This document shows, in pieces, positions 863 to 19,299 of a stretch of 64,000 nucleotides of DNA. Within the stretch, counting starts at the first letter, position 1; each line of letters starts with the position of its first letter. Below the pieces are notes generated by a model. It saw only the letters and a list, made by a program, of their open reading frames with translations, ran no database searches and was not told the DNA's origin. Origin of the DNA: Candidatus Omnitrophota bacterium (GTDB lineage: Bacteria; Omnitrophota; Gorgyraeia; Zapsychrales; Zapsychraceae); assembly GCA_029261055.1 (NCBI GenBank), contig JAJDCA010000014.1, positions 5,295 to 69,294 on the forward strand. Direction: 5' to 3'. The translations under genes and the position numbers were made by a program.

Positions 863-1741
863 ATGTACGAAATCCTCAATAAACAAATTCTTGCCGAAGA
901 TGTGAAACGTTTGGATGTTTCGGCTCCTAATATTGCCAAGAAAATCCAGCCCGGTCAGTTTGTGAGTGTTTCTCCCGAGGAGGGAGATGAGCACATTCCT
1001 CTAAGTATTGTGGACACAGATCCTCAAAAAGGTGTTATTTCACTTATTTTTCAGGAAGTGGGTTTGACCACGGGCAAGTTGGGAACCCTTCCGATTAATG
1101 AATCCATTTTTTCGATTCTCGGACCTCTGGGAGTGCCGTCAAAAATTGACAAGAAAGGTGTTGTTGTATGTGTAGCGACGGGCGTGGGATCTGCTCAGAT
1201 TTTGCCGATATGCCGTGCGTACCGAAAAGCCGGCAATAAAGTGATCGGTATTATTGGGGCGAAGACGAAACGATCGCTGCTGCTGGAAGCCCAGATGCGG
1301 CTGTCATGTAATAAATTGTTAATTGCGACAAATGATGGTACGTATGAACGTCGTGGATTGGCTACAGATATTCTTAAAGAAATCGTGGCCCAACAAAAAA
1401 TAAATTTTGTGTATGCGATTGGATCGGTCGATATGATGCAGGCCGTGTGTGTATTTACGAAAGAAAAGAAAATTAAGACACGTGTGTATTTGAACCCGGT
1501 GATGGTGGATTGTATGGGGATGTGTGGATCTTGTCGGGTCAAGGTAGGTGGAAAGATTTTGTTGGCCTGTATTGAAGGTCCGGAATTTGACGGACATAAA
1601 GTAGATTTTCAGTATTTTAATATTCGGATGAAAGCTTTTGAGGAGTTAGATAGATGGGACAACCAGAAGGGGCTCTCCAGCCCAAAGAAAAGCGAGTCAG
1701 GAATTTTAACGAGGTTTCTCTCGGGTATTCTAAGAAAATAA
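863..1741 (+). CDS. nfnA: PyrK-like FAD/NAD(P)-binding, 2Fe-2S electron-transfer subunit (NfnA / sulfide dehydrogenase SudB-like)
   Basis: 292 aa. Ferredoxin-reductase-type FAD/NAD fold and a C-terminal Cys cluster (CMGMCGSC). Immediately followed by a GltD-like partner. Confidence 0.65.
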   Translation: MYEILNKQILAEDVKRLDVSAPNIAKKIQPGQFVSVSPEEGDEHIPLSIVDTDPQKGVISLIFQEVGLTTGKLGTLPINESIFSILGPLGVPSKIDKKGVVVCVATGVGSAQILPICRAYRKAGNKVIGIIGAKTKRSLLLEAQMRLSCNKLLIATNDGTYERRGLATDILKEIVAQQKINFVYAIGSVDMMQAVCVFTKEKKIKTRVYLNPVMVDCMGMCGSCRVKVGGKILLACIEGPEFDGHKVDFQYFNIRMKAFEELDRWDNQKGLSSPKKSESGILTRFLSGILRK

Positions 1742-3015: not shown

Positions 3016-3101
3016 CAGGCCTTCGGTAATTCTAAAACAGAAAGTGTGGACATTGTGTGTACTTTATGTTATCCTTTAATTAAGGAAAGGAGCTTAAAGT
3101 T

Positions 3102-3389
3102 ATGGAAAAAAATATTTACAAAGACAGTCGGATTGATCTTCGCATAGAGGTGGATCAAAAGAAATTTTTAGTTTACGCAGCATCTCTTCGTGATATGAAG
3201 CTTTCATCCTTTGTTGTGGCCAGCGCTTTAAAAGAGGCTGAAGAAATTGTGGCAGATAAAATTTCTTTTGCATTACCGGAAAAAAAATGGAAGGCCTTCT
3301 GTGCCGCGCTTGATCGTCCTGCGCGTACGATTCCAAAATTGAAAAAACTTTTTACTGATCCGAGTGTGTTTGATGCGGAAAAAGAATGA
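3102..3389 (+). CDS. DUF1778-type (TacA/AtaR-like) antitoxin
   Basis: 95 aa, preceded by a GGAAAGGAG ribosome-binding site. Overlaps the start of a GNAT toxin gene, the classic TacAT arrangement. Confidence 0.6.
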   Translation: MEKNIYKDSRIDLRIEVDQKKFLVYAASLRDMKLSSFVVASALKEAEEIVADKISFALPEKKWKAFCAALDRPARTIPKLKKLFTDPSVFDAEKE

Positions 3390-3885
3390 TCTTAGTCTTC
3401 CAGTTCTTTTGAAGAAATCGTATTCCGTGACAACATTTGATTGCGGCGTTGAAGTTCTTAACACGTACCTCAAACGATTTGCCTATGTGAATAATCAAAA
3501 CAGTTCATCGCGTACATATGTAGCCGTACGGGGGAAACACGTTGTGGGTTATTACACTGTAACCCCGGGGTCTGTAACAAAGGAAGAGACTCCTCTTCGC
3601 GTTGCCAAGGGGTTAGCCAATCATCCCGTGCCTGTGATTATTTTGGCCCGCCTGGCTGTTGATAAAACAGAACAAGGCGCCGGCTTAGGCAAAGGGCTTC
3701 TGCTGGACGCTTTAATACGTATTATTCGTGCTGCTGATAGTATTGGTGGCCGTGCAATTTTAGTACATGCCAAAGACTCTAAAGCTAAATTTTTCTATAA
3801 AAAATTTGGCTTTGAACCCTCCCCAATTGACCCTTTCCATCTGTATCTTCTTGTAAAAGATGTGAAACGTACTTTAAAATCATAA
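3373..3885 (+). CDS. GNAT-family acetyltransferase toxin (TacT/AtaT/KacT-like)
   Basis: FDCG near the N-terminus and the acetyl-CoA-binding region VHAKDSKAKFFYKKFGFE. ATG at 3373 (the track ORF begins with GTG at 3364) overlaps the antitoxin stop. Confidence 0.7.
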   Translation: MRKKNDLSLPVLLKKSYSVTTFDCGVEVLNTYLKRFAYVNNQNSSSRTYVAVRGKHVVGYYTVTPGSVTKEETPLRVAKGLANHPVPVIILARLAVDKTEQGAGLGKGLLLDALIRIIRAADSIGGRAILVHAKDSKAKFFYKKFGFEPSPIDPFHLYLLVKDVKRTLKS

Positions 3886-4024
3886 AAATTAATATTTTTA
3901 GAAGAATTCTATCATTATTTACTGCAATAGGTTGTGTAGATTTTGGGATTATTTACTTTTTGCTGTTCTTGTAAGTTATTATTCTTCAATGTATTATGAT
4001 TTTTTTAGCTGTGTTTTGGGCCCC

Positions 4025-4055
4025 TTGACACTTATCAAAAATATGTTATCTTTTC
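4025..4055 (+). promoter_or_regulatory. promoter of giant gene 1: TTGACA, 16-nt spacer, extended -10 TGTTATCTT. Contains a 16-mer, AATATGTTATCTTTTC, also found upstream of giant gene 2
   Basis: The motif at 4040-4055 is identical to 13629-13644. Confidence 0.5.
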
Positions 4056-4166
4056 ATTATCTGAACAAGAAAACGTTTTTTCTACAAAATTATGCCAATA
4101 ACCTGCCTTCCTATCGTCAGGCAGCCACGCCACGGATTGGTTGAATTTATCAATATTGGAGGAAAT

Positions 4167-7100
4167 ATGAGCATTTTTATAAAAAAACAACGCTTTTGTC
4201 TATTTTATAGGCTTTTATCTGCATTTATTGCCGTGGCATTCGTAACCACAACAATTATTCCGCGAGGATATGCAAATACAATGATTAATGGTCAGGGGTC
4301 AGTGCTCAGTCTTCCGATTCCCGGTACGATGGTCACGGCAAGTGAGGCGTTTGTGCCTACGCTGATTAAAGGGATTACGATTCATCCGGAGAATCCGTTA
4401 CAGTTCAATTTTATTGTAGATACGGGAAATACGGGCATGCAGCAAGGGAAGGTGCTTGAAGATGAAACGACCAAATTGGTGAAATATTTTTTGGCGGCAC
4501 TTACGGTACCGGAACAAGAGATGTGGGTCAACTTGAGTCCGTACGAAGAGAATCGTATTATTGCCGATGGCTTGGGCGATACTGAGTTAGGACGCGATAT
4601 GCTCGCGCAGGATTATTTGCTCAAACAATTGACTTCTTCTTTGATGTATCCGGAAGACGAATTAGGTGAAAGATTTTGGGATCGCGTGTATGCCCGTGCG
4701 CAAGAAGAATTCGGAACGACGGACATTCCGATGAATACGTTTAACAAGGTGTGGATTGTACCGGAGAAGGCTGTGGTGTTTGAGGACGAGAAGACATCGA
4801 GTACGTATGTGTTGGAGAGTCATTTGAAGGTGATGTTGGAGGAGGACTATGTTACGATGGAACATAATACGGATCGTAGGGGTCTGATTCATCAAACCCA
4901 GGACAAGGGCATGATAAATCATGCCCCTACGGATATCATCCGCGAAATCCTCATTCCCGAAATCGAACGCGAAGTCAACCACGGAAAAACCTTCGCCAAT
5001 CTCCGTCAAATTTACAATTCCATGATTTTAGCGACGTGGTACAAACAAAATCTCAAACAATCCCTTTTAGGGCAAGTTTACATCGACCAAAATAAAACCA
5101 AAGGCATCGACACCGAAGACAAAAAAATTACCCAAAAAATCTACAACCAATACGTCGAATCCTTCCAAAAAGGCGTCTACGACTACATCAAAGAAGATTA
5201 TGATCCCGTCACCCAGCAAATCGTTCCGAGAAAATATTTCTCGGGAGGATTATTAGGACCAGTTACATCAAATCCTGATTTTTCAATGGTTGTTTTAACA
5301 AATACGAAAGATATCGATAGAAGTTTGTTAGGTAAAAATCCGCAGTTTAGTGCTTTGTTTAATTTGGCAGATTTAGGGGGTGAGTCCAAAAGCATATTAG
5401 AAATCACACAAGCGGTCAATAATGCAACAATGATCGATAAGTATATGGTTAAGGAAAAAGTGTTGGATAAAGACGAAGCCATGACAGTGAAAGATGTATC
5501 GATGATGACGAAAAAAAAGGATGGAATAAAAAAAGTAATAAAAAGGGGAGAGATAAGAAACTTTCTTTTTTCCTTATTAGCAATTCCGTTGTTTTTTTCG
5601 ATTTTTATTCCTCCTGTAATTATTGTGCAGATGTTTGTTTCTGTAAATGATATGATGTCTCCTAATCCTTTTTTTCAAATAGAATCAGTGCAAACTAATA
5701 ATAGGCTAGAAGTACAAAATCCGTTTTCAGAAGATCTATTTAAGAAGACTATTAACGATTTGGAAAAATTTTTTCGGAGCGATAAGTCTGCAAATAAAGA
5801 ATTGAAATTCATGAAAATTAGTGAGTTTGTTGCACAATTGAAGTTTGCGCTACGAGATAATGTTAATCTTGATAATTTGAGTTGGGACATGGAGGATATT
5901 AACGAACCTCTTGTAACAGATAAAGATATATTTAACAATATTGCAAAGAGTACATCTAAATGGTTGGAAAATGCTAATGAGGAAACTCAAAAGAGGATAA
6001 TAAATCAACTTTTAGACGTTGAGGATCTTCATTATAGTAGTAAGTATAATTTTTTTAGGTCAATTGGGGGATACCTTAGAAAGCACGATCATGCCATGCT
6101 GGTCGCTCCCGAGATACGGTCAACGGTTAAGTTTCTTACGGAGACGATTGGTGAAGATGTGATGCTCGCGGATGTGCGTTTGCTTGATCAATTGAAAGCA
6201 ATAGAGAATGATGAAGAGTATCAGAATGAAGGCGGTCGTAAGAATTCCACAGGACGTGCGATTCATGACTTTATTGATGATTTAGAAAAAAAATTTGATA
6301 AGAATATGGATGTAATAAAAATGAACGAATTGGGTATTAATGTTGATGATGAAAAAAAGAAACTTGAGAATTGGCGCAATACGTTTCATAAGAAATATTA
6401 TGTTAATCAACGTATTGGATATGCAGGTATTTCGGAAGGAGAAAAGAAAAGTGCTATGAAGGTTATTAATGAAGTAAGTAGATCTTTAATAAAGAAATTC
6501 TTTAACCAATATATTGTTAAAAAGGGTAATAAGCTGATTAACACTAGGTTCTCAGCATCACAAGATCATACAATTCAACCTGAAAAATGGCATTCAGGTG
6601 GGTGGAGTGTAAAAGATAATTTCATTGGTGTTCCTCTCGCCATTGGTTCTTTGATTGCCTTGGAAAGAGAATACAAAAAGGGGGTGTATCGTGACATCAA
6701 TAACACTGGACAGGAGGTTGTCAACTTGGTGTTAGAAGAGTTTTATCAAATCAGACGATCAGAACGTGCTTCTGATTTGAGTAATGTGATTGGTCAAGTT
6801 TTGAATACGTACCGTAGGTATCAAAATTCGACAAATTCGATTGGTCAAGAAATTAAAGAAGATGCTGTTAATGATTTTCGGGATTTAGGAATAGATGAGA
6901 GTGAAATCAGGGAGTTGATCAAATCCAAAGATTCCTTCGGTGCCAAAATGTTGTACATAGCGAAACGTATCCTTTCGGATAATGTAAAAACAGACGAACA
7001 GGCTATTCAACATGCGATTAATGGGCTATCGATACCAGAGCTTGATATTCTTGATGAATTTATTGATGGTGTAGAAACGAAAGTTACAAAAGAAGATCCC

Positions 7101-8639
7101 GTATCTTTAGCAGATGTTTTAAATAAGGTTAGAGAAAAATTGGTTTATAAGTCAATCGTAAGGCCTAGGAAGCGTAATTATAGCATAATCATATCCGAAG
7201 ATTATGATTACGGATCTACTGACACGGATTCAGAGCTCAAAGAACGATTGATACGCCTCAATACAAAAAAAATGATCGCTGACAGGAAAAAAGAGTTAGG
7301 AGATAAGGCTATGGTGGCGGAAATGAAGGATATTGATAAGTTTCAGAAAGTCAGGGGTATTAATCTGGATGCTTCGATGATGGATGATGAAAGTTTGCGT
7401 AAAGAGATTAAGGTTGCTCTTGTGAATATGGATGAGCATATAAAAAAATGGGAAGGTGCGAAAAATGAGTTTCTTGAAACTTTAAATAAAATTTTGTATG
7501 AATATAGGGAGTATTCTGAAATAGAAAATAAGCTTGAGGGAGGTCTTTCAGAAAATGATGAGAAAAAGCAATATGATGTGAAGGATAGCGAAGAAAGTAT
7601 TTCTTTTTCACTAGGAATTAGTGACCAAATTAGGCTGGCGGTTGAAAGATTTTCCAACATAGTTTGGGATAAAGAAATAAAACAATATAATAGGGCAAAA
7701 CTTTGGGAAGGTGATGAGTCTCAAGGTGAGACTAATGAAGAAGAAATTGATAGAGTTCGTCAAGATGTGATAGAAATAACGCATATTGGTATTCAGGAAA
7801 TTATTAATAATATTTTAAAAGACCTGAGTAGTGAAGGTAAAGTTTTGAATTTAATAGAGCATTATTCTATTGTCGAGAAAGTATTAAATAATTTGATAAG
7901 TGAGGAGCCTACATTGAATGATGAGGTAGATTGGATAAATGTGGCATTAAGGGCTATTAATCGATTTAAAGAGATGACACAAAGATTAACGGTTGTTGAT
8001 CAAAATCTTAATATTTCAGGGGAGTCGGTTAACGATTCTGAAAAATATATTAATGAAAATGTGCTGGGACTTAAAAGGGATGCGAATACGTATATTTTGA
8101 AGATGTATTTAAAGTTTATGGGGATTGAAATAACAACCAATGCAGAATTATTTAATGAAGATGTAGATAGTTTTGGAAAGGGGCTTCTTGATTCATTGTT
8201 TAATGCTCTTAACGATAAAGATCATCCTATTAATAATGAAGGTTTTGGTCCATTTGATGATGGTATTGATTTAGAAGATGACGATTCTAATTTAGAAGAT
8301 GATCCTGATGTGGGTGATGATTCAATGATCACGCAAACTGTTAATCATATAAATAACCCTGGAGGTATCAACCTTGACGCGGCGATGTTGGATTTGCAGA
8401 TTAGGCGGGATGGGAATGGGGTGCCGTTGCCGGTTGCGGAGCAGGATTTTTCAACAATGCATATTGAAGGGTTTTTGCCGATTATGATAGATATGGCACC
8501 GGTGAGCATTCCTATGCTGCTCGGTTTCGCGGATGAAGATGGCGGCGTGCCGGTGACCGGTTGTCCTTCGGATGAAGAGGGAATCAATTGCAACCACGAT
8601 TTCATTTTAACCAAGCAGGAAGACGAGATATTTTTGTAA
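4167..8639 (+). CDS. giant secreted / membrane-anchored protein, paralog 1 (1490 aa from the ATG at 4167 with a GGAGG ribosome-binding site)
   Basis: Strong RBS plus an N-terminal hydrophobic signal or anchor. A ~330-aa N-terminal domain is shared with the protein at 13647-17357. An internal 28-aa hydrophobic segment, a long K/E/D-rich low-complexity core and an acidic D/E run follow. The C-terminal ~60-aa motif (GGINLD..LDLQ..HIEGFLP..PV) is shared with the paralog. Confidence 0.8.
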   Translation: MSIFIKKQRFCLFYRLLSAFIAVAFVTTTIIPRGYANTMINGQGSVLSLPIPGTMVTASEAFVPTLIKGITIHPENPLQFNFIVDTGNTGMQQGKVLEDETTKLVKYFLAALTVPEQEMWVNLSPYEENRIIADGLGDTELGRDMLAQDYLLKQLTSSLMYPEDELGERFWDRVYARAQEEFGTTDIPMNTFNKVWIVPEKAVVFEDEKTSSTYVLESHLKVMLEEDYVTMEHNTDRRGLIHQTQDKGMINHAPTDIIREILIPEIEREVNHGKTFANLRQIYNSMILATWYKQNLKQSLLGQVYIDQNKTKGIDTEDKKITQKIYNQYVESFQKGVYDYIKEDYDPVTQQIVPRKYFSGGLLGPVTSNPDFSMVVLTNTKDIDRSLLGKNPQFSALFNLADLGGESKSILEITQAVNNATMIDKYMVKEKVLDKDEAMTVKDVSMMTKKKDGIKKVIKRGEIRNFLFSLLAIPLFFSIFIPPVIIVQMFVSVNDMMSPNPFFQIESVQTNNRLEVQNPFSEDLFKKTINDLEKFFRSDKSANKELKFMKISEFVAQLKFALRDNVNLDNLSWDMEDINEPLVTDKDIFNNIAKSTSKWLENANEETQKRIINQLLDVEDLHYSSKYNFFRSIGGYLRKHDHAMLVAPEIRSTVKFLTETIGEDVMLADVRLLDQLKAIENDEEYQNEGGRKNSTGRAIHDFIDDLEKKFDKNMDVIKMNELGINVDDEKKKLENWRNTFHKKYYVNQRIGYAGISEGEKKSAMKVINEVSRSLIKKFFNQYIVKKGNKLINTRFSASQDHTIQPEKWHSGGWSVKDNFIGVPLAIGSLIALEREYKKGVYRDINNTGQEVVNLVLEEFYQIRRSERASDLSNVIGQVLNTYRRYQNSTNSIGQEIKEDAVNDFRDLGIDESEIRELIKSKDSFGAKMLYIAKRILSDNVKTDEQAIQHAINGLSIPELDILDEFIDGVETKVTKEDPVSLADVLNKVREKLVYKSIVRPRKRNYSIIISEDYDYGSTDTDSELKERLIRLNTKKMIADRKKELGDKAMVAEMKDIDKFQKVRGINLDASMMDDESLRKEIKVALVNMDEHIKKWEGAKNEFLETLNKILYEYREYSEIENKLEGGLSENDEKKQYDVKDSEESISFSLGISDQIRLAVERFSNIVWDKEIKQYNRAKLWEGDESQGETNEEEIDRVRQDVIEITHIGIQEIINNILKDLSSEGKVLNLIEHYSIVEKVLNNLISEEPTLNDEVDWINVALRAINRFKEMTQRLTVVDQNLNISGESVNDSEKYINENVLGLKRDANTYILKMYLKFMGIEITTNAELFNEDVDSFGKGLLDSLFNALNDKDHPINNEGFGPFDDGIDLEDDDSNLEDDPDVGDDSMITQTVNHINNPGGINLDAAMLDLQIRRDGNGVPLPVAEQDFSTMHIEGFLPIMIDMAPVSIPMLLGFADEDGGVPVTGCPSDEEGINCNHDFILTKQEDEIFL

Positions 8640-8692
8640 ATTGACATTTTGGTAATTTTTTGTAGAATGAGCTATACTTAAGTTGAGGTGAC

Positions 8693-8893
8693 ATGATGAA
8701 ATTTAAAAATATGACAGAAATATTTACGGTATATGAAAATCAGTGGGTTGCGCTAACTGATGACGACAAAATTATTGCTTCTGCAGATACTTTAGAATCT
8801 GTTTTAGAAAAGGCCTCTAAAAAAGGATATGATACTCCCCTCACTGCAAAAATCCCCGACTCTAAACACGAGTTTGTTTTATGTCATCTTTAA
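8693..8893 (+). CDS. small 66-aa protein of the kind found paired with retropepsin-like proteases (possibly DUF5678-like, family name from memory only)
   Basis: Its stop overlaps the start of the downstream protease gene. Ribosome-binding site GAGGTG. Confidence 0.45.
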   Translation: MMKFKNMTEIFTVYENQWVALTDDDKIIASADTLESVLEKASKKGYDTPLTAKIPDSKHEFVLCHL

Positions 8894-9357
8894 AAGTTCC
8901 CTATACGCGGGTTTCCACTAATTTCAATCTTTCAATGTTTAAATTTAAGAATCAACCTCTTTTAAAGGTTGGTCTTTTAGGTCAAAATAATCAATGCATT
9001 AGAGCCACGGCGTATATTGACACAGGGGCTCAAGTATGTCTTTTTAATAAAGATTATGCTACTTTTTTGGGTATAAAAAATTACAAAGATACAGAAGAAA
9101 GTATTCCCTTAACTGGTATTGGTGGGAAAAAACCTGAAAATGTGGCCTATTTTCATAGTCTAACGTTGGTTGTTTTTAAAAATCAAAAAAAATTAGAAAT
9201 AAAGAATGCATATAAAATTCAGACAAAAATAGGTTTTTTGGAAAAAGAAATAGGGTTTGCTGGGATATTAGGTGTTTATGGATTTTTGGATCAATTCTCA
9301 TTTTTAGCTAATATCCCGGAACACTATTTTGAATTAACACCGAAGTTTGTAGCTTAG
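8881..9357 (+). CDS. retropepsin-like (clan AA) aspartic protease
   Basis: YIDTGAQ active-site motif (hydrophobic-hydrophobic-D-T-G-A). ~160 aa, typical of single-domain bacterial retropepsins. Confidence 0.65.
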   Translation: MSSLKVPYTRVSTNFNLSMFKFKNQPLLKVGLLGQNNQCIRATAYIDTGAQVCLFNKDYATFLGIKNYKDTEESIPLTGIGGKKPENVAYFHSLTLVVFKNQKKLEIKNAYKIQTKIGFLEKEIGFAGILGVYGFLDQFSFLANIPEHYFELTPKFVA

Positions 9358-9398
9358 ATTAAGACATTTCCATTGTCAATTTATCGATATTTGCTAGA

Positions 9399-10253
9399 AT
9401 GGCACACATGCAGAAGATATCCGTAGCACACATCCAAAATAAAAAAGTTAAGCAAGAGAAAATCACGATGCTGACGGCGTATGATTATCCGATGGGGGTG
9501 TTGTTGGATAAAGCCGGGGTGGATATGGTGTTGGTGGGGGATTCTGTGGCCAATGTGGTTTTGGGGCTTGAATCGACCACAGAGGTGGGGATGTTTGAGA
9601 TGTTGCATCATGCCAAGGCGGTCCGTCGTGGAGTCAAAGAGGCTCTTTTGATAGGGGACATGCCGTATGAATCTTATCAAACAGCTACACAAGATGCCGT
9701 GGCCAATGCCAAACGTTTTGTGGATGAAGCGGGATGTGATGCGGTGAAATTAGAATGGTTTGACCGTTGTATTGAGGTGGCGGCTGATATTGTTCAGGCG
9801 GGCATTCCGGTGATGGGGCATGTGGGGTTAACACCTCAGACAGCTGAGCAATTAGGGGGGTTTAAAGTTCAGGGGAAGGATGCGGATTCTGCGAAGATTA
9901 TTATCGGGAATGCAAAGGCGTTGGAGGAAGCAGGGTGTTTTAGTATTGTTTTGGAGTGTGTTCCGGATAAAATTGCGCAATTAATTACAAAGCAATTATC
10001 CATTCCAACGATCGGGATTGGGGCTGGCCTTTATTGTGACGGACAGGTTCTGGTGACACACGATCTTTTAGGTTTGTTTGATCGTTTTCGTCCAAAATTT
10101 TCTAAACAGTATGTGGATTTAGGGGCCGCGGTTGTTGACGGTGTAAAGAATTTTTGTCAAGAGGTCCGTCAGGGTAAATTCCCCGATGAAGTGCATAGTT
10201 ATTCGATCAAACAAGAGGAATTATCTAAGATAAACGGAGGTGATCTTGTATGA
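9399..10253 (+). CDS. panB: 3-methyl-2-oxobutanoate hydroxymethyltransferase
   Basis: [18 protein letters not shown] and GHVGLTPQ motifs, all characteristic of PanB. Confidence 0.85.
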
Positions 10254-10588
10254 AAAAATGTCCTTTTTGTGCGGAAGAAATTCAAGATCAAGCTATTAAA
10301 TGTCGGTTTTGTGGTGAATTTTTGAATAAAGATAAAGAAGCACCTGTACATGAAAAACCAAAATGGTTTTTTAAGACATCCAGTTTGGTTGTTGGTTTTT
10401 TATTTGTGGGGCCTTTTATTTTACCCGTGATTTGGTTTAACCCGCGGTTTTCAACGATGAAAAAAATTATTTTTAGTCTCATTGTTTTTATTGTTTCTAT
10501 AATTCTTTTAAAAATACTGATGATGAGTTTCGAATCGATCAATGAATACTATGAAATTTTTCAGGATATGAATCAAGCAAGGAGTTAG
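10250..10588 (+). CDS. zinc-ribbon (CPFC..CRFC) membrane protein, hypothetical
   Basis: N-terminal CxxC-x9-CxxC motif followed by two hydrophobic helices. Confidence 0.45.
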
Positions 10589-10593
10589 TACCT

Positions 10594-11451
10594 ATGGAAA
10601 ATATTGTAGAAAATAAAACACAAGATGTGGGGATTGAATGGCAGAAAGTCGATGGGTTTACGGATATCACATATCATAAAGCCGACGGTATTGCAAAAAT
10701 TACAATTAATCGACCTGAGGTACGCAATGCCTTTCGTCCTTTGACGGTGCACGAAATGTCAGAAGCTTTGGCTGATGCGCGCGATGATGAAGATATTGGG
10801 GCGATTATTTTAACAGGTGAAGGTGAGAAAGCTTTTTGTTCTGGAGGGGATCAAAAAATTCGTGGCGAAGCCGGATACAAAGATCATAAATCTGGAAATA
10901 AAAATCGATTAAATGTGTTGGATTTTCAGCGACAGATGCGTACGTGTCCGAAACCAATTATTGCGATGGTGGCTGGGTATGCTGTGGGTGGCGGTCACGT
11001 TTTGCATTTATTGTGTGATATCACAATTGCTGCCGACAATGCGATCTTTGGACAAACTGGCCCGAAGGTGGGGTCATTTGACGGTGGTTACGGCGCGAGT
11101 TACATGGCACGGATTGTTGGACAAAAGAAGGCGCGAGAAATTTGGTTTTTGTGTCGTCAGTACAGTGCCCAAGAAGCGTTAGATATGGGATTGGTGAACA
11201 AAGTTGTTCCTTATGCCGATTTAGAAAAAGAAACGGTTCAATGGTGCCGTGAAATTTTAGTTAATTCTCCGATGGCCATACGCTGCCTTAAAGCTGCACT
11301 TAATGCTGACTGCGACGGCCAAGCCGGTCTGCAAGAACTCGCGGGTAATGCCACGATGTTATTTTACATGACCGAAGAAGGCCAGGAAGGCCGCAATGCC
11401 TTTGTCGAAAAACGTAAACCGGATTTTAAAAAATTTCCACGAAGACCTTAA
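10594..11451 (+). CDS. menB: 1,4-dihydroxy-2-naphthoyl-CoA synthase (crotonase fold)
   Basis: Enoyl-CoA hydratase fold with FCSGGDQ and [11 protein letters not shown] motifs. Lies in a men gene neighbourhood. Confidence 0.85.
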
Positions 11452-11533
11452 CAGTCATCAGCTATCAGTCCTCAGCCTTCAGTATACTTTATTATTTACT
11501 GATGTCTGAAGTCTGATAGCTGACGGCTAAATA
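11452..11533. terminator. imperfect ~30-bp inverted repeat (long hairpin) downstream of menB
   Basis: GTCATCAGCTATCAGTCCTCAGCCTTCAGTA ... TACTGATGTCTGAAGTCTGATAGCTGAC. Confidence 0.35.
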
Positions 11534-11535
11534 TT

Positions 11536-12417
11536 ATGATTTCATCACTCAAACTTTGGTTTATGGCCATTCGGCCAAAAACATTAACCGCCGCCGTGGC
11601 GCCGGTGTTGATCGGCACGGCGATGGCTTTCGGCGATGGCATTCATCATTTGCCAACCGCTTTTCTTTGTCTTTTCGGCGCTATTCTTATTCAAATCGGT
11701 ACGAATTTGGCCAATGATTATTTCGATTTCAAAAAAGGGACGGACGACGTAGATCGTATCGGGCCGACGCGGGTTACGCAGGCAGGGCTGATTTCACCCG
11801 AAGTGGTGAAATTTGCCTTTATTTTGACATTTGTTCTATCGGCATTGGTGTGTATTGCATTGGTTATCCGTGGTGGTTGGCCGATTGCGGTGATCGGTAT
11901 TCTTTCGATTATTTCCGGCATTCTTTACACGGCAGGGCCGAAACCTTTAGGGTATATGGGGCTGGGAGATGTTTTTGTTTTTGTTTTCTTTGGTCCTGTG
12001 GCAGTCGCTGGAACGTATTATGTGCAATCCTTTGAAATGAATATGGCCGTCATCCTTGCCGGTGTGGCGCCGGGTTTAATTTCCGCCGGAATTTTAACCG
12101 TCAATAATTTGCGAGATATTGTTGGAGATAAAAAATCTGGTAAAAAAACGCTGGCTGTTCGTTTTGGTCGTTCGTTTGCACAGAGTGAATATTTGTTTTC
12201 GATGATTGCCGCCTCGCTGGTGCCGGTATTGATTTATGCTCTCATTCAGGATCATTTACCCATTTTAATGGGTACAGTCGTGAGTCTTTTGGCTATTCCT
12301 ATTATGAAAAAGGTTTTGGTTTCTACGGATGGCCCTGCGCTTAACCTTGCCTTAGCGAAAACCGGAAAATTATTATTAATTTACAGTGTGCTTTTTTCGA
12401 TAGGTTGGATTTTATGA
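11536..12417 (+). CDS. menA: 1,4-dihydroxy-2-naphthoate polyprenyltransferase (UbiA family)
   Basis: Multi-pass membrane protein with the NDYFD Asp-rich prenyltransferase motif. Confidence 0.8.
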   Translation: MISSLKLWFMAIRPKTLTAAVAPVLIGTAMAFGDGIHHLPTAFLCLFGAILIQIGTNLANDYFDFKKGTDDVDRIGPTRVTQAGLISPEVVKFAFILTFVLSALVCIALVIRGGWPIAVIGILSIISGILYTAGPKPLGYMGLGDVFVFVFFGPVAVAGTYYVQSFEMNMAVILAGVAPGLISAGILTVNNLRDIVGDKKSGKKTLAVRFGRSFAQSEYLFSMIAASLVPVLIYALIQDHLPILMGTVVSLLAIPIMKKVLVSTDGPALNLALAKTGKLLLIYSVLFSIGWIL

Positions 12418-13490
12418 AAATCATTTCTTTTCAAACCTACAGATACGTTTTGCCTTTTGTGAATCCGATATCTGTGCGAGGTGTTAAGCTTTCGCAGAGG
12501 GAGGGGCTGATTATTCATTGCACGTCAGAACAAGGTATTGAAGGTTTTGGCGAGGCGGCCCCCTTACCGGGATTAAGTGAAGAAAGTTTAGAAGATGTTA
12601 TTGAAGAAGTCGAAATGTTTGAAAGTGTTTTGTTAGATCAGGATGTTCCAAAAAATATTGAAAAGTTTGAAGGCGCTTTGACAGAATGGCTTTCCGCATA
12701 TTCGCTTAGTCCATCGTTACAGTTTGCTATCGAAACGGCCATGTTAAATTTGATGGCGAATAGTCGTAAGATTCTTTTAAGTCAGCTATTCGAAGAATCC
12801 CCAGTAGAGAACATTAGTGTTAATGGTTTATTACAAGGGACAATGGATGAGGTTGTTTTACAAGCGAAGGCATGTTTGTTAAATGGATTTACCGCCATGA
12901 AATTAAAGGTTGGTCGAAAAGATATGGATGAAGATATTCGTAATGTTCAGGCGGTATCAGAAATTATTAGAGATAAAGCTTTGTTACATTTGGATGCGAA
13001 TCAGGCTTGGACATTAAAGGAAGCCGTTAAGTTTGGGCAAGCTATCGGTTGCGCGTGTGTGGATTATATTGAAGAGCCATTACAAGATGTGGCAGGGATA
13101 CCAGAATTTTTTCATCAGACATTAATCCCTGCGGCTTTGGATGAATCATTACAGAATTTAGATATTAAAGATGTTGGTTCGATCGAAGGGGCTGATGTTG
13201 TAGTTGTTAAACCTACTATTTTGGGCGGCATTGAAAAAACTTACCATCTTATCAAATATGCCAGAGAACGTGCTTTACGGTGTGTTGTCAGTTCCTCATT
13301 TGAATCTTCCATTGGAGTTACTACTTTAGCGCATTTGGCCGCAAGCCTCACACCTCGCACCGCAGCTGGATTAGATACCTTAAAATTCTTTCAAAAAGAT
13401 GTCTTGAAAAAAGGTGTTTTTATTCAAAAAGGTAAGATTCCTCTTTCTCAATGCCGGGTCCGGAAAGAAAATGTCCAAATCAATGTTTAA
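12405..13490 (+). CDS. menC: o-succinylbenzoate synthase (enolase superfamily)
   Basis: MKLKVG...LDANQAW...IEEP catalytic Lys/Asp/Glu pattern of the MR/MLE family. Sits in men context. Confidence 0.75.
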   Translation: MDFMKIISFQTYRYVLPFVNPISVRGVKLSQREGLIIHCTSEQGIEGFGEAAPLPGLSEESLEDVIEEVEMFESVLLDQDVPKNIEKFEGALTEWLSAYSLSPSLQFAIETAMLNLMANSRKILLSQLFEESPVENISVNGLLQGTMDEVVLQAKACLLNGFTAMKLKVGRKDMDEDIRNVQAVSEIIRDKALLHLDANQAWTLKEAVKFGQAIGCACVDYIEEPLQDVAGIPEFFHQTLIPAALDESLQNLDIKDVGSIEGADVVVVKPTILGGIEKTYHLIKYARERALRCVVSSSFESSIGVTTLAHLAASLTPRTAAGLDTLKFFQKDVLKKGVFIQKGKIPLSQCRVRKENVQINV

Positions 13491-13628
13491 ATATAAAATA
13501 TTTATTTATGAAGATATTCTTGCCGTTGTGCGCTGAATACGTTTTCTCTTACCATTTTTTCAGCGTCATGAATTAATCTTACCAAGTCTTATTCTAATAA
13601 AAATATATTTTTGGCAGGGTAGTAAGGA

Positions 13629-13644
13629 ATATGTTATCTTTTCC
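13629..13644 (+). promoter_or_regulatory. conserved 16-mer AATATGTTATCTTTTC (extended -10-like), identical to 4040-4055
   Basis: Exact repeat seen upstream of both giant paralogs. Here it abuts the annotated ATG (13647), so the true start is probably downstream (ATG 13659). Confidence 0.5.
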
Positions 13645-13646
13645 AT

Positions 13647-16600
13647 ATGAAGTCGATTATGCGGAGTATTTTTTATTTTATTATTTATGTAATACTGTTA
13701 ACTTTTGGGATGACGACATGTTTTCCTTCAGGGGTAAGCTGTGCTCAGGATGTTTCAAGTTATCCTGTTGAATTAGGCTTGCCGCCTATTGGGCAAAGTC
13801 TTTCTTTAAGTCCTCTCTATGTGCCGCCATTGTTCAAAGGGTTAATGGTTTATCCTCAAGAGCCTTTTCGTTTTGATTTTATTATGGACACTGGGCATGC
13901 AGGTTTATTGCCTGATGAAAAAGCTACAGAAGGGGAAAAGTTGATGCGTTATTTTCTTGCAGCTTTGACTATTCCTGAGGATGAACTGTGGGTCAACCTT
14001 TCGCCGTACGAGGCAGATCGGATTATTCCTGATGCATTGGGTGTGACAGAAATGGGGCGGGATATGCTGGCGCAGGATTATTTACTCAAACAGTTGACGG
14101 CATCATTGATGAATCCTGAAGAAGAGTTAGGGGGAGAATTTTGGGATAGGGTGCACACACAGGCTTATGCACAGTACGGGGTGACGAATATTGACATGAA
14201 CATGTTTCATAAAATTTGGATTGTGCCGGAGAAGGCATTAGTTTATGAAAATACAGGGCAGGTATTTATTTTGGAGTCAAAGTTGAATGTTATGTTGGAG
14301 GAGGATTACAAGGCATTGAACAACAATAATCCCAATGCCGAGTCCCGAGCAACCCTTGGTGAAAATCAGTTGCGAGGGATCTCTACTAAAATTATCCGTG
14401 AAATTCTCATTCCCGCAATCAAACAAGAAATCAACCACGGCCAAACCTTCGCCCCTTTACGCCAAATTTATCATTCCATGATTCTCGCCACGTGGTACAA
14501 GCAGGCATTACAAGAAAGCCTGATTAATCAATCCTATTCCAATCAAAAAAAGACATTGGGTGTGGATATTGAAGATAAAGACGTTAAAGATAAAATTTAT
14601 CAGCAATACATTGCAGCCTTCAAGCAAGGAGTGTCTGACATTATCAGAGAAGATTATGATCCAGTCACCCAGGAAATTATTCCGCGAAAATATTTCTCTG
14701 GTGGGTTGATCGGAAAAGTTAAATTTATCGCAACCAACGATGCCTCCCAACTCACTACTGCCCAAGCCGTAGGCGACTGGGCACTTTTAGCAGGAGATGT
14801 ACAGCTTCGTAATTATTTAGAAATAGATTTAGGTGTGTCGGTGAATAAAATTAATACAGATGAGTATGTAAAAATACTTAATGATAAAGTATTTCAGAAT
14901 GTAGCAGCATTACTTGAGCAGAATAAATTTAGTCAAGCAAAGAAATTACTGTCTGTAGTCAGGAAAGGTTATGAAGAAATTAAACAGGTTAATCAAAATG
15001 CTGCGGTGGGAAGTCTTAATTATAAACGAGCAAAGATTGTTGAGTTGAATAGTAAGCATGTTGAGAATTTGATTCATGATATTGTTAGAGATGAATCGAA
15101 TATTGGTTTTTTATCTATTGATTATGAAGTTCGTAATCTTTTAAAAGTTTTTTTTGAGGAATATAATATTACAGAAGATGGGTTTAGGTTTTTTTTAGAT
15201 CATGTTTTACATGGAATGAGTATAGGCGATCTTAAAGAACGAATAGAAAAATTCTTTTTATGGGGGAATGCGAAAGTAACGGATGAAAAATTATCAAAAG
15301 AACTTGCCCAAAAGATATGGAATTTAGATTTTGAAGGGGGCGTAGGCCTAGAAACGTTTCCTGAGCGATCACGATTTGGTGAGAAAATTATTTTAAATCT
15401 TATTCAAAAATTGATGGATATTAATAAGCAGGAGTTAAATGTTGGAATTATTGGGGGGGGATGGTTTCCTGATAATGGGATGCCTTTTTCTAATGGACCA
15501 ATTATTACAGGAAAAATGGCTTACCGAATTGGGGAAATATGTTCTGCTTGTAGAGTTAGCGGGTTAGATATTTTTTTTCCTGTTGAAAAAGTTGAAGATT
15601 CTATAGGAAATATTCTTTTGGTAGATAAGGACGGATATTATGTTTCTGTGCAGGGGTCGAATATTTTAATAGAACCGTTTCTTGATATGCAAAAACGGTT
15701 GTTAAAAAAGAGAAAAATACTTTTAGCGATGCGGCAAGCTTCAGGAGATAATCCAGAGGTTTATGTGGTTGAAAAAAATGAAGGTTTGATTGAAGCAGGA
15801 GATCGTATAGTAAGAAATCCTCTTGATCGATATGTAGAAAGATTTCATGATGTTAATCGAGGTGGTCAAGGGGTTAAATTGAAGAATTTACATTTTCAGA
15901 GAGCAGGAAAAAATTTTGAGTTGTACAGTGAAAAGAAATTTGATGGGATATATACAGCTAATACGGGTTGGAGAAATTTGCCTGAAACGTATTTGGATGG
16001 TATGCAAAAATGGGGAAAGAAAATTAAAAAGGGAGGTTTTTTAGTAAGTGAAATTAATTTTCCAAAGGGGTTCCCTCTTGTTGTAGGTGAATTCCAAAAA
16101 GGAGAAGATGAGTTGTCTTTAATGAAACTCCATTTTTCTATGTGGGATTATTATTCAATTATTTCATCTGGAAGAATTTTTGATAGTAAAGATGCTTTTG
16201 ATCATATCGTCGAGACGAAATATCGTAATATTCTTATGGAGGTTTGGAAAAAATTGATCAATATTAAAGGTGGGGATTTAACAATAATAGGAGCGGACCT
16301 TACTGAAGAGTTTATTGATAATGTAAAAGTTGAATTAAACGGCTTAGCCGCCGTCCACATTGCCGATGCGGAGGAGGGGCGGGAAGGGCATTTGGTGGTG
16401 ACGATTGATTTTGATAAGTCAATGATGGGGGGGGATAACTCTGGGCGTAAAAAAAATAAACGGACTGTTTTTGTGGAAACATTGGTTAAGAAGTGGATAA
16501 AGAAAAATAAGGGTAAGAGAATAAGAAAAATTCCTATAAGTGGTGCAGCATTAGGAGGGATTGTGATGCTCAGTAAAGAGACTGCGCTTAAAGCTGTTAA

Positions 16601-17357
16601 ATATTCTAGTGATGGAAAAGTTGAAACAACATATAAACCGGCATTGCTTGATGAATATGATTTTTTGGTATTTATGAAAAAAATTTTAAATGAGTCCCCA
16701 GGTGCGTATCAGAGTGTGGAATTCTTAAAGGTTAGGATAAATTTAAAAAATAAATTTGATAATATCATAGATAAAATTCGGAAAGTAGAAGAGGAAAATA
16801 GTAATAAAAAATTAAAAGGAAAGAAAAGAATTGGAGGGCAGCCCGGTTATAACAAAATGGCATTGGATGATTTTGTGGCATATACAAGAAAAAGGAAGAA
16901 ACATCTCGATACATTTCCAATTAAATCAATAGAATTGCAATTTTTATTTGGTTTTCCTAAAAGGGAGAATATTTCAACATATCGCTCTCGATATTTAGGT
17001 GGGCTTATTATAAAGGAGCCTCTGGACAAAAATGACAAGATAAATTTTTTAAAGTTAATTCGTAGATGGGCAAAAAAATATGAAGGGGAAAATGAAATTA
17101 TTAAAGAAATGCCTGGGAAAATTAACGTTATGCTAAAAGATTTTGCGGCTTTGGCTTTACCTCAGCAAGGTGGAGTTGATTTTAATCCGCAATATTTGGA
17201 TTTACAAAGGCAAGGGAATAGGATAGATTCAGCTGTACTGACAGAAGGCCTGACGCAAGGTCAGATTCATTTTGATGGTTTGGAGCCTGTGGTTTTACGC
17301 GTTTTGCCGGTGACGGATATTGTGGGGTTGTTTGAGGCTTCAGGAGTTATGTGGTAA
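13647..17357 (+). CDS. giant secreted protein, paralog 2 (1236 aa)
   Basis: N-terminal signal peptide. The ~330-aa N-terminal domain is ~55-60% identical to paralog 1, with ~80% nucleotide-identity tracts. The core is divergent, and the C-terminal motif (GGVDFN..LDLQ..HFDGLEP..PV) is shared. Confidence 0.8.
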   Translation: MKSIMRSIFYFIIYVILLTFGMTTCFPSGVSCAQDVSSYPVELGLPPIGQSLSLSPLYVPPLFKGLMVYPQEPFRFDFIMDTGHAGLLPDEKATEGEKLMRYFLAALTIPEDELWVNLSPYEADRIIPDALGVTEMGRDMLAQDYLLKQLTASLMNPEEELGGEFWDRVHTQAYAQYGVTNIDMNMFHKIWIVPEKALVYENTGQVFILESKLNVMLEEDYKALNNNNPNAESRATLGENQLRGISTKIIREILIPAIKQEINHGQTFAPLRQIYHSMILATWYKQALQESLINQSYSNQKKTLGVDIEDKDVKDKIYQQYIAAFKQGVSDIIREDYDPVTQEIIPRKYFSGGLIGKVKFIATNDASQLTTAQAVGDWALLAGDVQLRNYLEIDLGVSVNKINTDEYVKILNDKVFQNVAALLEQNKFSQAKKLLSVVRKGYEEIKQVNQNAAVGSLNYKRAKIVELNSKHVENLIHDIVRDESNIGFLSIDYEVRNLLKVFFEEYNITEDGFRFFLDHVLHGMSIGDLKERIEKFFLWGNAKVTDEKLSKELAQKIWNLDFEGGVGLETFPERSRFGEKIILNLIQKLMDINKQELNVGIIGGGWFPDNGMPFSNGPIITGKMAYRIGEICSACRVSGLDIFFPVEKVEDSIGNILLVDKDGYYVSVQGSNILIEPFLDMQKRLLKKRKILLAMRQASGDNPEVYVVEKNEGLIEAGDRIVRNPLDRYVERFHDVNRGGQGVKLKNLHFQRAGKNFELYSEKKFDGIYTANTGWRNLPETYLDGMQKWGKKIKKGGFLVSEINFPKGFPLVVGEFQKGEDELSLMKLHFSMWDYYSIISSGRIFDSKDAFDHIVETKYRNILMEVWKKLINIKGGDLTIIGADLTEEFIDNVKVELNGLAAVHIADAEEGREGHLVVTIDFDKSMMGGDNSGRKKNKRTVFVETLVKKWIKKNKGKRIRKIPISGAALGGIVMLSKETALKAVKYSSDGKVETTYKPALLDEYDFLVFMKKILNESPGAYQSVEFLKVRINLKNKFDNIIDKIRKVEEENSNKKLKGKKRIGGQPGYNKMALDDFVAYTRKRKKHLDTFPIKSIELQFLFGFPKRENISTYRSRYLGGLIIKEPLDKNDKINFLKLIRRWAKKYEGENEIIKEMPGKINVMLKDFAALALPQQGGVDFNPQYLDLQRQGNRIDSAVLTEGLTQGQIHFDGLEPVVLRVLPVTDIVGLFEASGVMW

Positions 17358-17440
17358 TAAAAATAGTTGCGATTTAAAAAATATCTGGATGTGACTAAAA
17401 GAGCATGGTATTCTTTGAATAGAGAAAGGGAGGTTATAAA

Positions 17441-17659
17441 ATGTATAAGTCCAGTATTGTGAATGATATTCTTCAAAGAGCTTCTTCATTATCTCTGGAG
17501 GAGCAAAATTTTATTGTGGAGACGCTTAATAAGCGTATTCATGAGTATCGGAGAAATAAAATTGTACGACGGGTGAAGGAGGCTGAAAAGAATTACGGTA
17601 AAGGGAATGTAAGCAAAGGTAAGGTTAGTGATTTAATGAGTGAGTTAGATGATGATTAG
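17441..17659 (+). CDS. putative antitoxin (72 aa)
   Basis: AGGGAGG ribosome-binding site. Overlaps by 11 nt with a RelE/YafQ-like toxin gene. Confidence 0.45.
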   Translation: MYKSSIVNDILQRASSLSLEEQNFIVETLNKRIHEYRRNKIVRRVKEAEKNYGKGNVSKGKVSDLMSELDDD

Positions 17660-17921
17660 TCTAATTTGGGATGCCGCGTTTATTCGGATTCTTAAAAAAT
17701 GGAAGAAAAAACATCCGCATTTAATTAAAACTTTCCAAGAAGTGCTCTCTGAATTTGTTAAAAATCCTTTTCAACCTTCCCTACGAACACACTGTTTGAG
17801 TGGTAAGTTAAAAGACTGTTGGGCTTGTAGTATTACTTACGAATATCGCGTAGTATTTAAATTTATTTCCAAGAATAAAGTGCTGCTTATCGATATTGGA
17901 ACGCATGACGAAGTATACTAA
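17649..17921 (+). CDS. RelE/YafQ-family type II toxin (mRNA interferase)
   Basis: C-terminal HCLSGKLKDCWACSITYEYRVVFKF..LLIDIGTHDEVY matches the YafQ/RelE signature. Confidence 0.65.
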   Translation: MMISLIWDAAFIRILKKWKKKHPHLIKTFQEVLSEFVKNPFQPSLRTHCLSGKLKDCWACSITYEYRVVFKFISKNKVLLIDIGTHDEVY

Positions 17922-19299
17922 TTATCCTCCGCAGGTTTGTTTTAAAATCCAATCAAATAAAATCTTTATTATTTGCGGGCAGCAAATTGTAACATATGCG
18001 CAGTTTTTTGATGCTGTTGGTGGTGTGATTGATTATTTTCAATCAAGCGGAATTAAGTCTAAAGATCGTGTTGGAATTTGCTGCGCTAATAGTGTTGAGT
18101 ACGTGGCAGCATTAATAGCCCTGTGGCGTATTGGCACTGTCGCTTGTCTTTTGAGTCCGCGCTTACCACAGGAGGCGTTGCAGCAGCAATGTAGCAATTT
18201 GAGTTGTCAGAATGTTTTAACGAGCTTTCCTGAAGTGCCCTATTCAGATAAATTAACAGAAACAAATCCAAAATGGTCTTTGCCGGTAGATCAAGAGGCT
18301 ACGATTATGTTTACCTCCGGCAGTAGTGCCTCGCCCAAAGCGGTTTTGCATACGATTGGTAATCATTATTTCAGTGCCAAGGGCGCGAATGTTCATATTC
18401 CGTTAGTCGCTGGGGATCGATGGTTATTAACGCTTCCATTGCATCACGTCGGGGGTTTAAGTATTTTATTTCGTGCACTTTTGGCCGGGGCAACACTGGT
18501 TATTCCCGAGAAAGATGAGCCTATTGAGGCGGCAATACGGCGCTACGGCATTACGCATGTATCGATGGTGCCGACGCAGATTTATCGTTTATTAGGGGAA
18601 AATGAAGAAGGTGATTTAAAAAGTTTGAAGGCGATTCTTGTCGGCGGAGGGCCGATACCGGAAGCCCTTTTACAAAAAGCAATGGAAAAAGGTTTCCCGG
18701 TTCATACGACGTACGGCTTAACAGAAATGGCTTCGCAAGTTGCCACGTCAAACGTGTTGACGTCGGAAACTATTTCAAATGGCGGTAGAGTGTTGGAGGA
18801 TAGAGAAGTAAATGTTTCTGAAGAAGGTGAAATTTTAGTGCGTGGCAAGACGCTTTTTCAAGGTTATGTAGAAGGCGGGCACATTGATTGTTCGTTTGAC
18901 GCAGGCGGTTGGTTCGCAACCGGTGATTTAGGTGAGCTCAACGACGAAGGTTATTTAAAAGTGACTGGACGTAAAGATAATATGTTTATCTCCGGTGGCG
19001 AAAATATTCAGCCGGAAGAAATTGAACGGCATTTGTGTCGGTTAGAAGGCGTTGAGGAGGCTATCGTCATTCCCGTAGAACATGCGGAATTTGGCTTTCG
19101 CCCGGTGGCGTTTATAAAGTACATGAATGGAAAATCAATAACCTCCGAAGAAATCAAAAGAACTCTGCAACAATATCTCCCTAAATTCAAAATTCCCGAT
19201 ACCTTTTACGATTGGCCGGAAGGCATTATTAGTGAGGGGATTAAGCCAAGTCGGCTAGTATTTAAGCATTATCTTGAGCGAACAATTCCACGATCTTAG
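17896..19299 (+). CDS. menE: o-succinylbenzoate-CoA ligase (adenylate-forming enzyme)
   Basis: AMP-binding motifs TSGSSASPK, YGLTE and GDLG, in men context. The start is uncertain (17896 or 17905). Confidence 0.75.
   Translation: MERMTKYTNYPPQVCFKIQSNKIFIICGQQIVTYAQFFDAVGGVIDYFQSSGIKSKDRVGICCANSVEYVAALIALWRIGTVACLLSPRLPQEALQQQCSNLSCQNVLTSFPEVPYSDKLTETNPKWSLPVDQEATIMFTSGSSASPKAVLHTIGNHYFSAKGANVHIPLVAGDRWLLTLPLHHVGGLSILFRALLAGATLVIPEKDEPIEAAIRRYGITHVSMVPTQIYRLLGENEEGDLKSLKAILVGGGPIPEALLQKAMEKGFPVHTTYGLTEMASQVATSNVLTSETISNGGRVLEDREVNVSEEGEILVRGKTLFQGYVEGGHIDCSFDAGGWFATGDLGELNDEGYLKVTGRKDNMFISGGENIQPEEIERHLCRLEGVEEAIVIPVEHAEFGFRPVAFIKYMNGKSITSEEIKRTLQQYLPKFKIPDTFYDWPEGIISEGIKPSRLVFKHYLERTIPRS

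Follow-up and report, generated by a model that had tools for sequence, protein, structure and literature searches.

In a 64,000-nucleotide stretch of DNA from a Candidatus Omnitrophota bacterium (contig JAJDCA010000014.1, positions 5,295 to 69,294; hereafter, the window), two large genes of a single uncharacterised family lie at the menaquinone biosynthesis (men) cluster, and every toxin-antitoxin (TA) or TA-like module detected in the 64 kb adjoins one of them. The best-supported reading of the sequence comparisons is that large gene 2 and the RelE-type pair behind it (gene 2 + relBE) are a lineage-specific insertion that has broken up the men operon, whereas large gene 1 is probably not an insertion and would correspond by position to a family gene found at the start of the men cluster in related genomes. 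Taken jointly with the proposal that the TA modules are selfish lodgers in the permissive flanks of these genes, this account is one that we regard as moderately probable.

Gene 2 and a RelE-type pair separate menC from menE

In the window, menB-menA-menC (10594-13490; Pfam ECH_1, UbiA, and MenC_N/MR_MLE_C) and menE (17905-19299) are separated by large gene 2 (13647-17357, encoding 1236 amino acids [aa]), by an open reading frame (ORF) of 72 aa (17441-17659), and by a gene for a RelE/YafQ/YoeB-superfamily toxin (17649-17921). Both menC and menE exceed the cut-offs of NCBIfam equivalog models (TIGR01927, 233 bits against 130, and TIGR01923, 399 bits against 330, respectively). According to the ORF listing and the profile searches, all genes of 1654-17921 plus menE lie on the + strand, and the hotdog (4HBT_2) thioesterase gene identified with Pfam, a conserved partner downstream of menE, lies on the - strand (19262-19678).

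By contrast, menB-menA-menC-menE are contiguous in eight GTDB Omnitrophota relatives (L001 and L003-L009; MenC identity, 43-48%), none of which carries a family gene or TA pair at the menC-menE junction. In these relatives, the genes for the thioesterase, peroxiredoxin, superoxide dismutase, and ribonucleotide reductase come next where the contig reaches, and the thioesterase gene is found at the same position in L001, L004, L006, L007, L009, and also L093. The relatives found through MenC were mostly Omnitrophota metagenome-assembled genomes. Two further relatives, obtained by protein search, are closer to the window: L093 (MenC identity, 52%) and L092, the closest relative (60%), and in both menC and menE are likewise contiguous. 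Thus, none of the 10 relatives compared (L001, L003-L009, L092, and L093) has gene 2 + relBE at this site, and the claim of an earlier, sequence-only reading that the second set of genes interrupts the men operon is borne out by this synteny check. Because the outgroups polarise this second block, gene 2 + relBE is read as an insertion in the lineage of the window.

The men cluster of L001 contains a gene for a NIT-HAMP-MCP chemoreceptor between menE and the thioesterase gene (12613-14550); foreign genes have entered the 3' end of the men cluster on more than one occasion.

Family genes heading the men cluster

Large gene 1 (4092-8639, encoding 1515 aa, with a likelier, signal-peptide-like start at 4167) is part of a block (block 1, 3102-9357) that also contains a TacAT-like pair and a two-gene module encoding a DUF5678 protein and a protease. 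The left border of the block is a conserved gltD-like FAD/NAD(P) oxidoreductase gene (1654-3015; Pfam Fer4_20 and Pyr_redox_2), and the right border (9399-10588) consists of panB (9399-10253; Pantoate_transf, E=4e-110) and a gene for a small Zn-ribbon protein, ZnR (10250-10588).

L092 is the only relative that has the panB-ZnR-menB arrangement of the window. Its gene order is gltD-like, a 217-nt gap, and panB-ZnR-menB-menA-menC-menE, with identities to the window of 72% for the gltD-like product, 71% for PanB, and 68% for ZnR. Since both its gltD-panB and menC-menE junctions are closed, L092 lacks both blocks of the window at these sites, 3102-9357 and roughly 13491-17904. A short palindromic element, GTAAACAAAC..GG..TTTGTTTAC, occurs three times in the gltD-panB spacer of L092 (507-722) and is absent from the window.

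For block 1, the outgroups give a different picture. In L003, L004, L005, L007, L009, L045, and L088, ubiE-menF-menD lie directly upstream of menB, whereas the window and L092 have panB and the Zn-ribbon gene in their place; ubiE, menF, and menD are found nowhere in the 64 kb window. Because the outgroups carry ubiE-menF-menD, and not panB, upstream of menB, block 1 is not polarised. In L045 and L088, the gene immediately ahead of ubiE-menF-menD is a family gene, and a large protein with the same C-terminal motif is encoded at that men-operon head position in L003 and L005; over its final 84 residues, the L003 protein shares 84.5% identity with the end of the family protein of L088. These four cases indicate that a family gene heading the men cluster is a feature common to several Omnitrophota. 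The nearest relatives of gene 1, as judged by the conserved N-terminal domain (N-domain), are the family genes of L045 and L088 (59% and 57.5% identity, respectively). No TA neighbours were found beside the men-operon-head family genes or C-terminal homologues in L045, L088, L003, and L005.

The sequence-only reading had described each large gene with its TA pair as an inserted accessory cassette. As regards insertion, this description fits gene 2 + relBE, but it is not supported for gene 1, whose men-head counterparts occur without TA genes. Related genomes with the same gene order and no TA association, which that reading had named as speaking against itself, were thus found for part of the locus.

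The large-gene family

The two large proteins share an N-terminal region of ~350-400 aa, which is 50-52% identical, and a C-terminal motif of ~50-55 aa (GGI[DN][LF]..LDLQ..), whereas their middles are unrelated to each other. The conserved N-domain of the family, of ~350 aa, ends in PRKYFSGG. The fuller pattern of the C-terminal motif is GGIDLNP..LDLQ..G.P...I.GF.PVI..I.P; it is encoded at 8361-8573 and 17163-17321 in the window and recurs at more than 40 sites in L003-L090. The motif is covered by neither a Pfam nor an NCBIfam model and looks like a sorting or secretion tag. It is also found at the end of L003:47-3586, a large ORF that has phosphoglucomutase-type domains and no detected family N-domain.

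Gene 1 carries a signal peptide, the conserved N-domain, a unique AT-rich middle, and the C-terminal motif. In both large genes the base composition is mosaic: the conserved ends have a GC content of 0.41-0.46 and the unique middles of 0.33, with a third-codon-position GC of 0.25-0.30 in the middles. Neither gene matched any entry in Pfam, NCBIfam, PADLOC, or PDB, and a large-protein AlphaFold2 (AF2) model was of low confidence and gave no fold match.

Homologues of the N-domain number at least 1231, and nearly all of the source-named matches are labelled Omnitrophota or Omnitrophica. In 80 metagenome loci, the family genes encode ~770 to >3600 aa, are often in tandem, and usually close with the same C-terminal motif. 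These features characterise the family as Omnitrophota-specific, polymorphic, signal-peptide-bearing proteins, as far as can be read from sequence. Two or more N-domains were present in 9 of the 80 loci, and in several further loci, the C-terminal motif ends just upstream of the start of the next family gene. These tandem, same-strand arrangements were seen in L020, L023, L028, L033, L044, L047, L070, and L075, in L038/L040, and in L086.

A recent duplication of genes 1 and 2, as had been proposed from the sequence of the window, was rejected: the middles are unrelated, the N-domains are only 50-52% identical, and each copy has relatives in other organisms that are at least as close. Genes in other metagenomes are 57-63% identical to gene 1 and 54-58% identical to gene 2; in the N-domain ranking of the 88 neighbours of gene 1, gene 2 comes 32nd.

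TA and TA-like modules beside the large genes

Upstream of gene 1, a gene for a TacA-type (DUF1778, ribbon-helix-helix [RHH]) antitoxin (3102-3389) precedes and overlaps by 26 nt a gene for a GNAT toxin of the TacT/AtaT/KacT type (3364-3885) in the same orientation. The antitoxin matches Pfam PF08681 (TacA1; E=3e-20, 72 bits against a cut-off of 21), and its best solved relatives in PDB are KacA and DUF1778 antitoxins. The toxin matches Pfam Acetyltransf_7, _1, and _10 and aligns over nearly its full length with TacT, AtaT, and KacT chains in PDB (E of 3e-31 to 1e-16). No NCBIfam model names the pair. By these homologies, 3102-3885 corresponds to a TacAT-type type II TA pair, and the Pfam and PDB relatives confirm the earlier assignment of a TacA/TacT-like pair upstream of gene 1.

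Downstream of gene 2, the toxin encoded at 17649-17921 exceeds two curated cut-offs (PF15738 YafQ_toxin, 34.3 against 30 bits; TIGR02385 RelE_StbE, 39.9 against 27.9 bits) and matches the structures of HP0894, HP0892, and YoeB in PDB (E of 5e-4 to 2e-3), and is thus identified by homology as a RelE-superfamily toxin of the YafQ/YoeB-like kind. The RelE/YafQ-like pair noted earlier at this position is therefore upheld, with the 72-aa ORF as the putative partner of the toxin. This ORF has a ribosome-binding site, GGGAGG, and overlaps the toxin gene by 11 nt. It had no match in Pfam, NCBIfam, or PDB, including a search of its profile against PDB, and a word-indexed search returned only the ORF itself. 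In an exhaustive search, however, it was recovered as a family of 299 representative clusters, typically of ~71 aa and without annotation, and its AF2 model comprises three helices with a confidence score (pLDDT) of 85. The ORF is a real gene, conserved at the sequence level and predicted to encode an all-helical protein of a family without a name; it is called a putative antitoxin because of its position only.

The start codon of menE, an ATG supported by an independent gene call, lies within the 3' end of this toxin gene, with an overlap of 17 nt (17905-17921), and the first ~20 residues of MenE fail to align with those of relatives. Expression of menE may rely on transcription or translation through the TA pair.

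For gene 1, a further module (8693-9357) follows directly downstream. It consists of a gene for a small DUF5678 protein (8693-8893; PF18929, E=5e-12) and, overlapping it by 13 nt, a gene for a retropepsin-like aspartyl protease (8881-9357), which has weak Pfam matches to Asp_protease_2, gag-asp_proteas, and RVP. The protease also matches the PADLOC candidate defence model PDC-M08B (E=1e-7), one of the components A and B of PDC-M08; the DUF5678 protein matches nothing in PADLOC. The best sigma-70-like site of the region, with 11 of 12 matches, is located ahead of this module (8641-8668). In L033 (18919-19591), a DUF5678 ORF and an overlapping, co-directional ORF of 150 aa begin 76 nt after a family gene. 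The combination of DUF5678 and a retropepsin-like protease has the look of a two-gene module, TA-like or defence-like, that has not been described before. The earlier statement that each large gene is flanked by TA genes therefore stands, although it had missed this third pair.

No other TA families were found with Pfam in the remaining 18 small ORFs of the 64 kb. By a rough estimate, random placement of two to three modules among ~60 junctions would give the observed clustering beside the two large genes with p of ~4e-3 to 3e-4. In a promoter and terminator scan, promoter-like sites precede each unit, yet they are not enriched over shuffled sequences and are no more than suggestive.

TA modules beside family genes in other loci

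The association was further analysed in a sample of 90 family genes from the 80 metagenome loci, in which ORFs were called by ourselves; all 256 small ORFs (50-180 aa) were scanned against Pfam, and each match was mapped to its ORF. Within 1.2 kb of a family gene (140 kb in total), there were 11 canonical TA loci; inclusion of a DUF5678 ORF and a ParE-like pair raises this count to 13. The zone of 1.2-3 kb (156 kb) held none, and seven lay beyond 3 kb (283 kb; binomial p = 9e-4 to 1.3e-4). When gene ends were counted instead, TA genes adjoined 14 of 118 ends of family genes, as against 8 of 245 ends of other genes of at least 300 aa (odds ratio [OR] 4.0, p=0.004). In a conservative version, with duplicate contigs and non-canonical matches left out, the counts were 10 of 115 and 8 of 241, respectively (OR 2.8, p=0.04). 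The enrichment within 1.2 kb is thus ~3-6-fold (p 0.04 to 1e-4), and the TA genes are mostly immediately downstream of the family gene and co-directional with it (8 of 47 family downstream ends, compared to 5 of 121 controls).

The adjacent TA types were diverse: HicAB (three cases), MNT/HepT-HEPN (three cases), PemK, PIN, RelE-PF06296, Gp49/HigB, and MazE. Homologues of the TA proteins of the window were not found beside other family genes in these loci, and only ~10-15% of the family genes have a TA neighbour. Among five short family members on long contigs, one precedes IS66. Overall, the association between the family and TA modules is real but loose. As to whether the family is generally TA-adjacent, a question that the sequence-only reading had raised, the enrichment answers in the affirmative, but the small proportion of members with a TA neighbour and the differing TA types do not.

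Mobile-element signatures and base composition

No Pfam domain of an integrase, transposase, or recombinase was detected in any ORF of 863-24669, and no flanking repeats of at least 12 nt were found in 2900-19500. The sole repeat of this kind, an AT-rich 11-mer found on both sides of gene 2, could plausibly have arisen by chance. There is no tRNA target near the blocks, and the only tRNA gene of the window is at 35129. The search for flanking direct repeats that the sequence-only reading had proposed was thus negative at this length, and its mobile unit is not substantiated by a transposase or integrase domain, a flanking repeat, or a tRNA gene. Nor do a large gene and a TA pair appear to move together, as the TA types next to family genes vary by locus.

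Both gene 2 + relBE and 3102-9357 are nevertheless present here and absent at the same junction in relatives. The GC content is 0.31-0.36 in the TA-like modules and in the large-gene middles, as compared with 0.40 +/- 0.03 in the other genes; it is typical in the conserved ends of the large genes (0.41-0.46) and also low (0.30) in the conserved ZnR gene.

Other features of the window

A 26.8-kb Logan contig has a gene order identical to that of the window. Beyond the thioesterase gene, the window encodes peroxiredoxin, superoxide dismutase, and ribonucleotide reductase. The menB-menA intergenic region is filled by a 32-nt imperfect inverted repeat (11453-11528; 81% complementary, with a 12-nt spacer). 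At 55500-58982, a helicase resembling the R subunit of type I restriction enzymes contains HSDR_N, SWI2_SNF2, and T1R_D3-like domains and ends in a C-terminal Peptidase_S24 (LexA-like) domain, which is an unusual fusion.

Discussion

In the explanation that we favour, gene 1 would be a long-standing occupant of the head of the men cluster, where relatives also carry a family gene, and gene 2 with the RelE-type pair would have been inserted between menC and menE in the lineage of the window. The TacAT pair, the DUF5678/protease pair, and the antitoxin/RelE pair would be later additions; independent acquisitions are suggested because the neighbouring TA types are diverse and the TA proteins of the window have no homologues in the other loci. 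These modules would be selfish addiction modules that lodged, or were retained, in the permissive, recombination-prone flanks of polymorphic, non-essential genes. The antitoxins would neutralise their toxins, predicted from homology to be a GNAT enzyme acetylating charged tRNA and a RelE-type mRNA interferase, and loss of the DNA would free the toxin, which may slow deletion of the neighbouring segment as a side effect. There would be no dedicated functional coupling between a large gene and a TA pair. That these modules stabilise the neighbouring DNA is a reasonable inference by analogy, since TA-mediated maintenance of chromosomal islands is established, for example for Salmonella Genomic Island 1 (SGI1) (PMC5006074).

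Several points weigh against this explanation. The relatives are distant, with the closest one at 60% MenC identity and represented by a 2x-coverage contig with frameshifts, and the timing and exact junctions of the insertions are therefore not fixed; gene 2 and relBE may have arrived in one event or in two. For gene 1, the margins are small (59% and 57.5% for the men-head genes, as against 55-56% for other family members), and the absence of block 1 from L092 could be a deletion there. Moreover, L092 has a 26-aa gene-1-like N-terminal remnant (MNIYIKKQRFSLFFRLL...) after menE. A MazE/AbrB-like antitoxin gene and an opposite-strand transposase-like fragment lie beside this remnant (6524-7690), and the locus has therefore clearly been rearranged repeatedly. 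For the TA association, the ORF calls in the metagenome loci are crude, the enrichment is modest, and its p value varies between 0.04 and 1e-4 with the counting rules. In addition, a TA neighbour is present for 5 of the 36 family genes with both flanks covered, and for none of the five short members on long contigs.

The model of the sequence-only reading, in which a large gene and a TA pair form one mobile accessory cassette with the TA pair as its stabiliser, would account for the absence of both blocks at the same sites in L092 and of gene 2 + relBE in 10 relatives, for the low GC content of the middles and the TA genes, and for the co-directional position of the TA genes immediately downstream. 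Mobile-element genes occur near some family members (a resolvase in L052, IS66 in L098, and the transposase-like fragment in L092), and island maintenance by TA modules has the SGI1 precedent. However, no integrase or transposase domain, repeat of at least 12 nt, or tRNA target is present in 2900-19500, the counterparts of gene 1 in L045, L088, L003, and L005 lack TA genes, the TA types vary by locus, those of the window recur beside no other family gene, and ~85-90% of family genes have no TA neighbour, so that we consider this model unlikely. Coincidence, that is, that Omnitrophota genomes are rich in TA genes and two modules adjoin the large genes by chance, would agree with the low proportion of TA-adjacent family genes (~10-15%), the marginal conservative gene-end test (p=0.04), and the 0 of 5 additional members. 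A survey also ranks TA genes as minor in Omnitrophota hypervariable regions, in the portion of it drawn on here (bioRxiv 10.64898/2026.06.07.730766). Coincidence is at odds with the location of all modules in the 64 kb beside the two family genes (rough p of 3e-4 to 4e-3), with the TA density measured in independent loci (p of at most 9e-4), and with the TA-free zone at 1.2-3 kb, and we hold it to be quite improbable.

Even less probable, in our judgement, is a functional tie, in which the modules would be immunity or regulatory partners of the large proteins or parts of an anti-phage defence island. The co-directional modules immediately downstream, the conserved ends and variable interior of the family, the PDC-M08B match of the aspartyl protease (E=1e-7), and the type I restriction gene elsewhere in the window could be read in this way. 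Conversely, the modules comprise both a toxin and an antitoxin of canonical type, drawn from many unrelated families, and are not lone immunity genes; the variable part of the large proteins is the middle and not a C-terminal toxin domain, no toxin domain having been detected. The large genes and the canonical TA proteins are all without a PADLOC match, and such neighbours are missing from most family genes. A further possibility, to which we give only a small chance, is that the N-domain and the C-terminal motif are recombination anchors that swap the AT-rich middles, with downstream TA modules retained and locking in the variants. If so, the family would represent a system for varying secreted surface proteins that resembles a superintegron but works without an integrase, and the retained TA-like modules would include DUF5678 with the retropepsin-like protease. 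We return to the explanation favoured above, with gene 2 + relBE inserted and gene 1 resident.

Compared to known systems, the upstream pair shows clear homology to TacA/TacT, AtaR/AtaT, and KacA/KacT, in which a DUF1778/RHH antitoxin gene likewise overlaps a downstream GNAT toxin gene; it differs in coming from Omnitrophota, and its aminoacyl-tRNA acetylation is predicted from homology. The pair behind gene 2 is arranged like RelBE, DinJ-YafQ, and YefM-YoeB, with a small upstream gene overlapping a RelE-superfamily toxin gene (90 aa here). In contrast to those systems, the upstream protein does not belong to the RelB, DinJ, YefM, or Phd families, and the 3' end of the toxin gene holds the start of menE.

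TA modules occur in cassette arrays, as in the TA cassettes of superintegrons. By analogy with such arrays and with TA-stabilised islands, the logic of post-segregational killing could likewise disfavour loss of the segment here, but neither an integrase or excision machinery nor att sites or attC-like repeats were found. Moreover, unlike in TA-stabilised islands, one of the two large genes is apparently at its ancestral position. In sgiAT of SGI1, a TA pair likewise lies among variable accessory genes that are missing from relatives (PMC5006074). The large proteins differ from polymorphic toxins with immunity proteins (Rhs/CdiA-like) in that their C-terminus is conserved and their middle variable, with no toxin domain detected, and the genes downstream are complete TA pairs. 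Giant Omnitrophota proteins, as presented in the parts of two studies considered here, come from the same phylum, bear signal peptides, and have no assigned function (bioRxiv 10.1101/2023.11.21.568195; 10.64898/2026.06.07.730766); genes 1 and 2 encode far smaller proteins, of 1.2-1.5 kaa (thousand aa). Those parts report one RHH antitoxin among the genes flanking giant-protein loci, and the survey (10.64898/2026.06.07.730766), within the same limits, gives TA genes a minor place among the flanking or cargo genes.

Thus, the TA modules of the window belong to known families, the clustering of TA genes with flexible genes is a known pattern, and the clustering of TA modules with the large genes reveals no new kind of system. 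More novel than this clustering are the uncharacterised gene family and its C-terminal motif.

The locus offers a clean example of an accessory gene and an addiction module splitting a conserved biosynthetic operon, and the menE start inside the toxin gene raises the question of how menE is expressed. Omnitrophota is a phylum thought to live as host-dependent nanobacteria. The modest tendency of TA modules to lie beside this family, shown here with controls, marks its genes as a flexible part of the genome.

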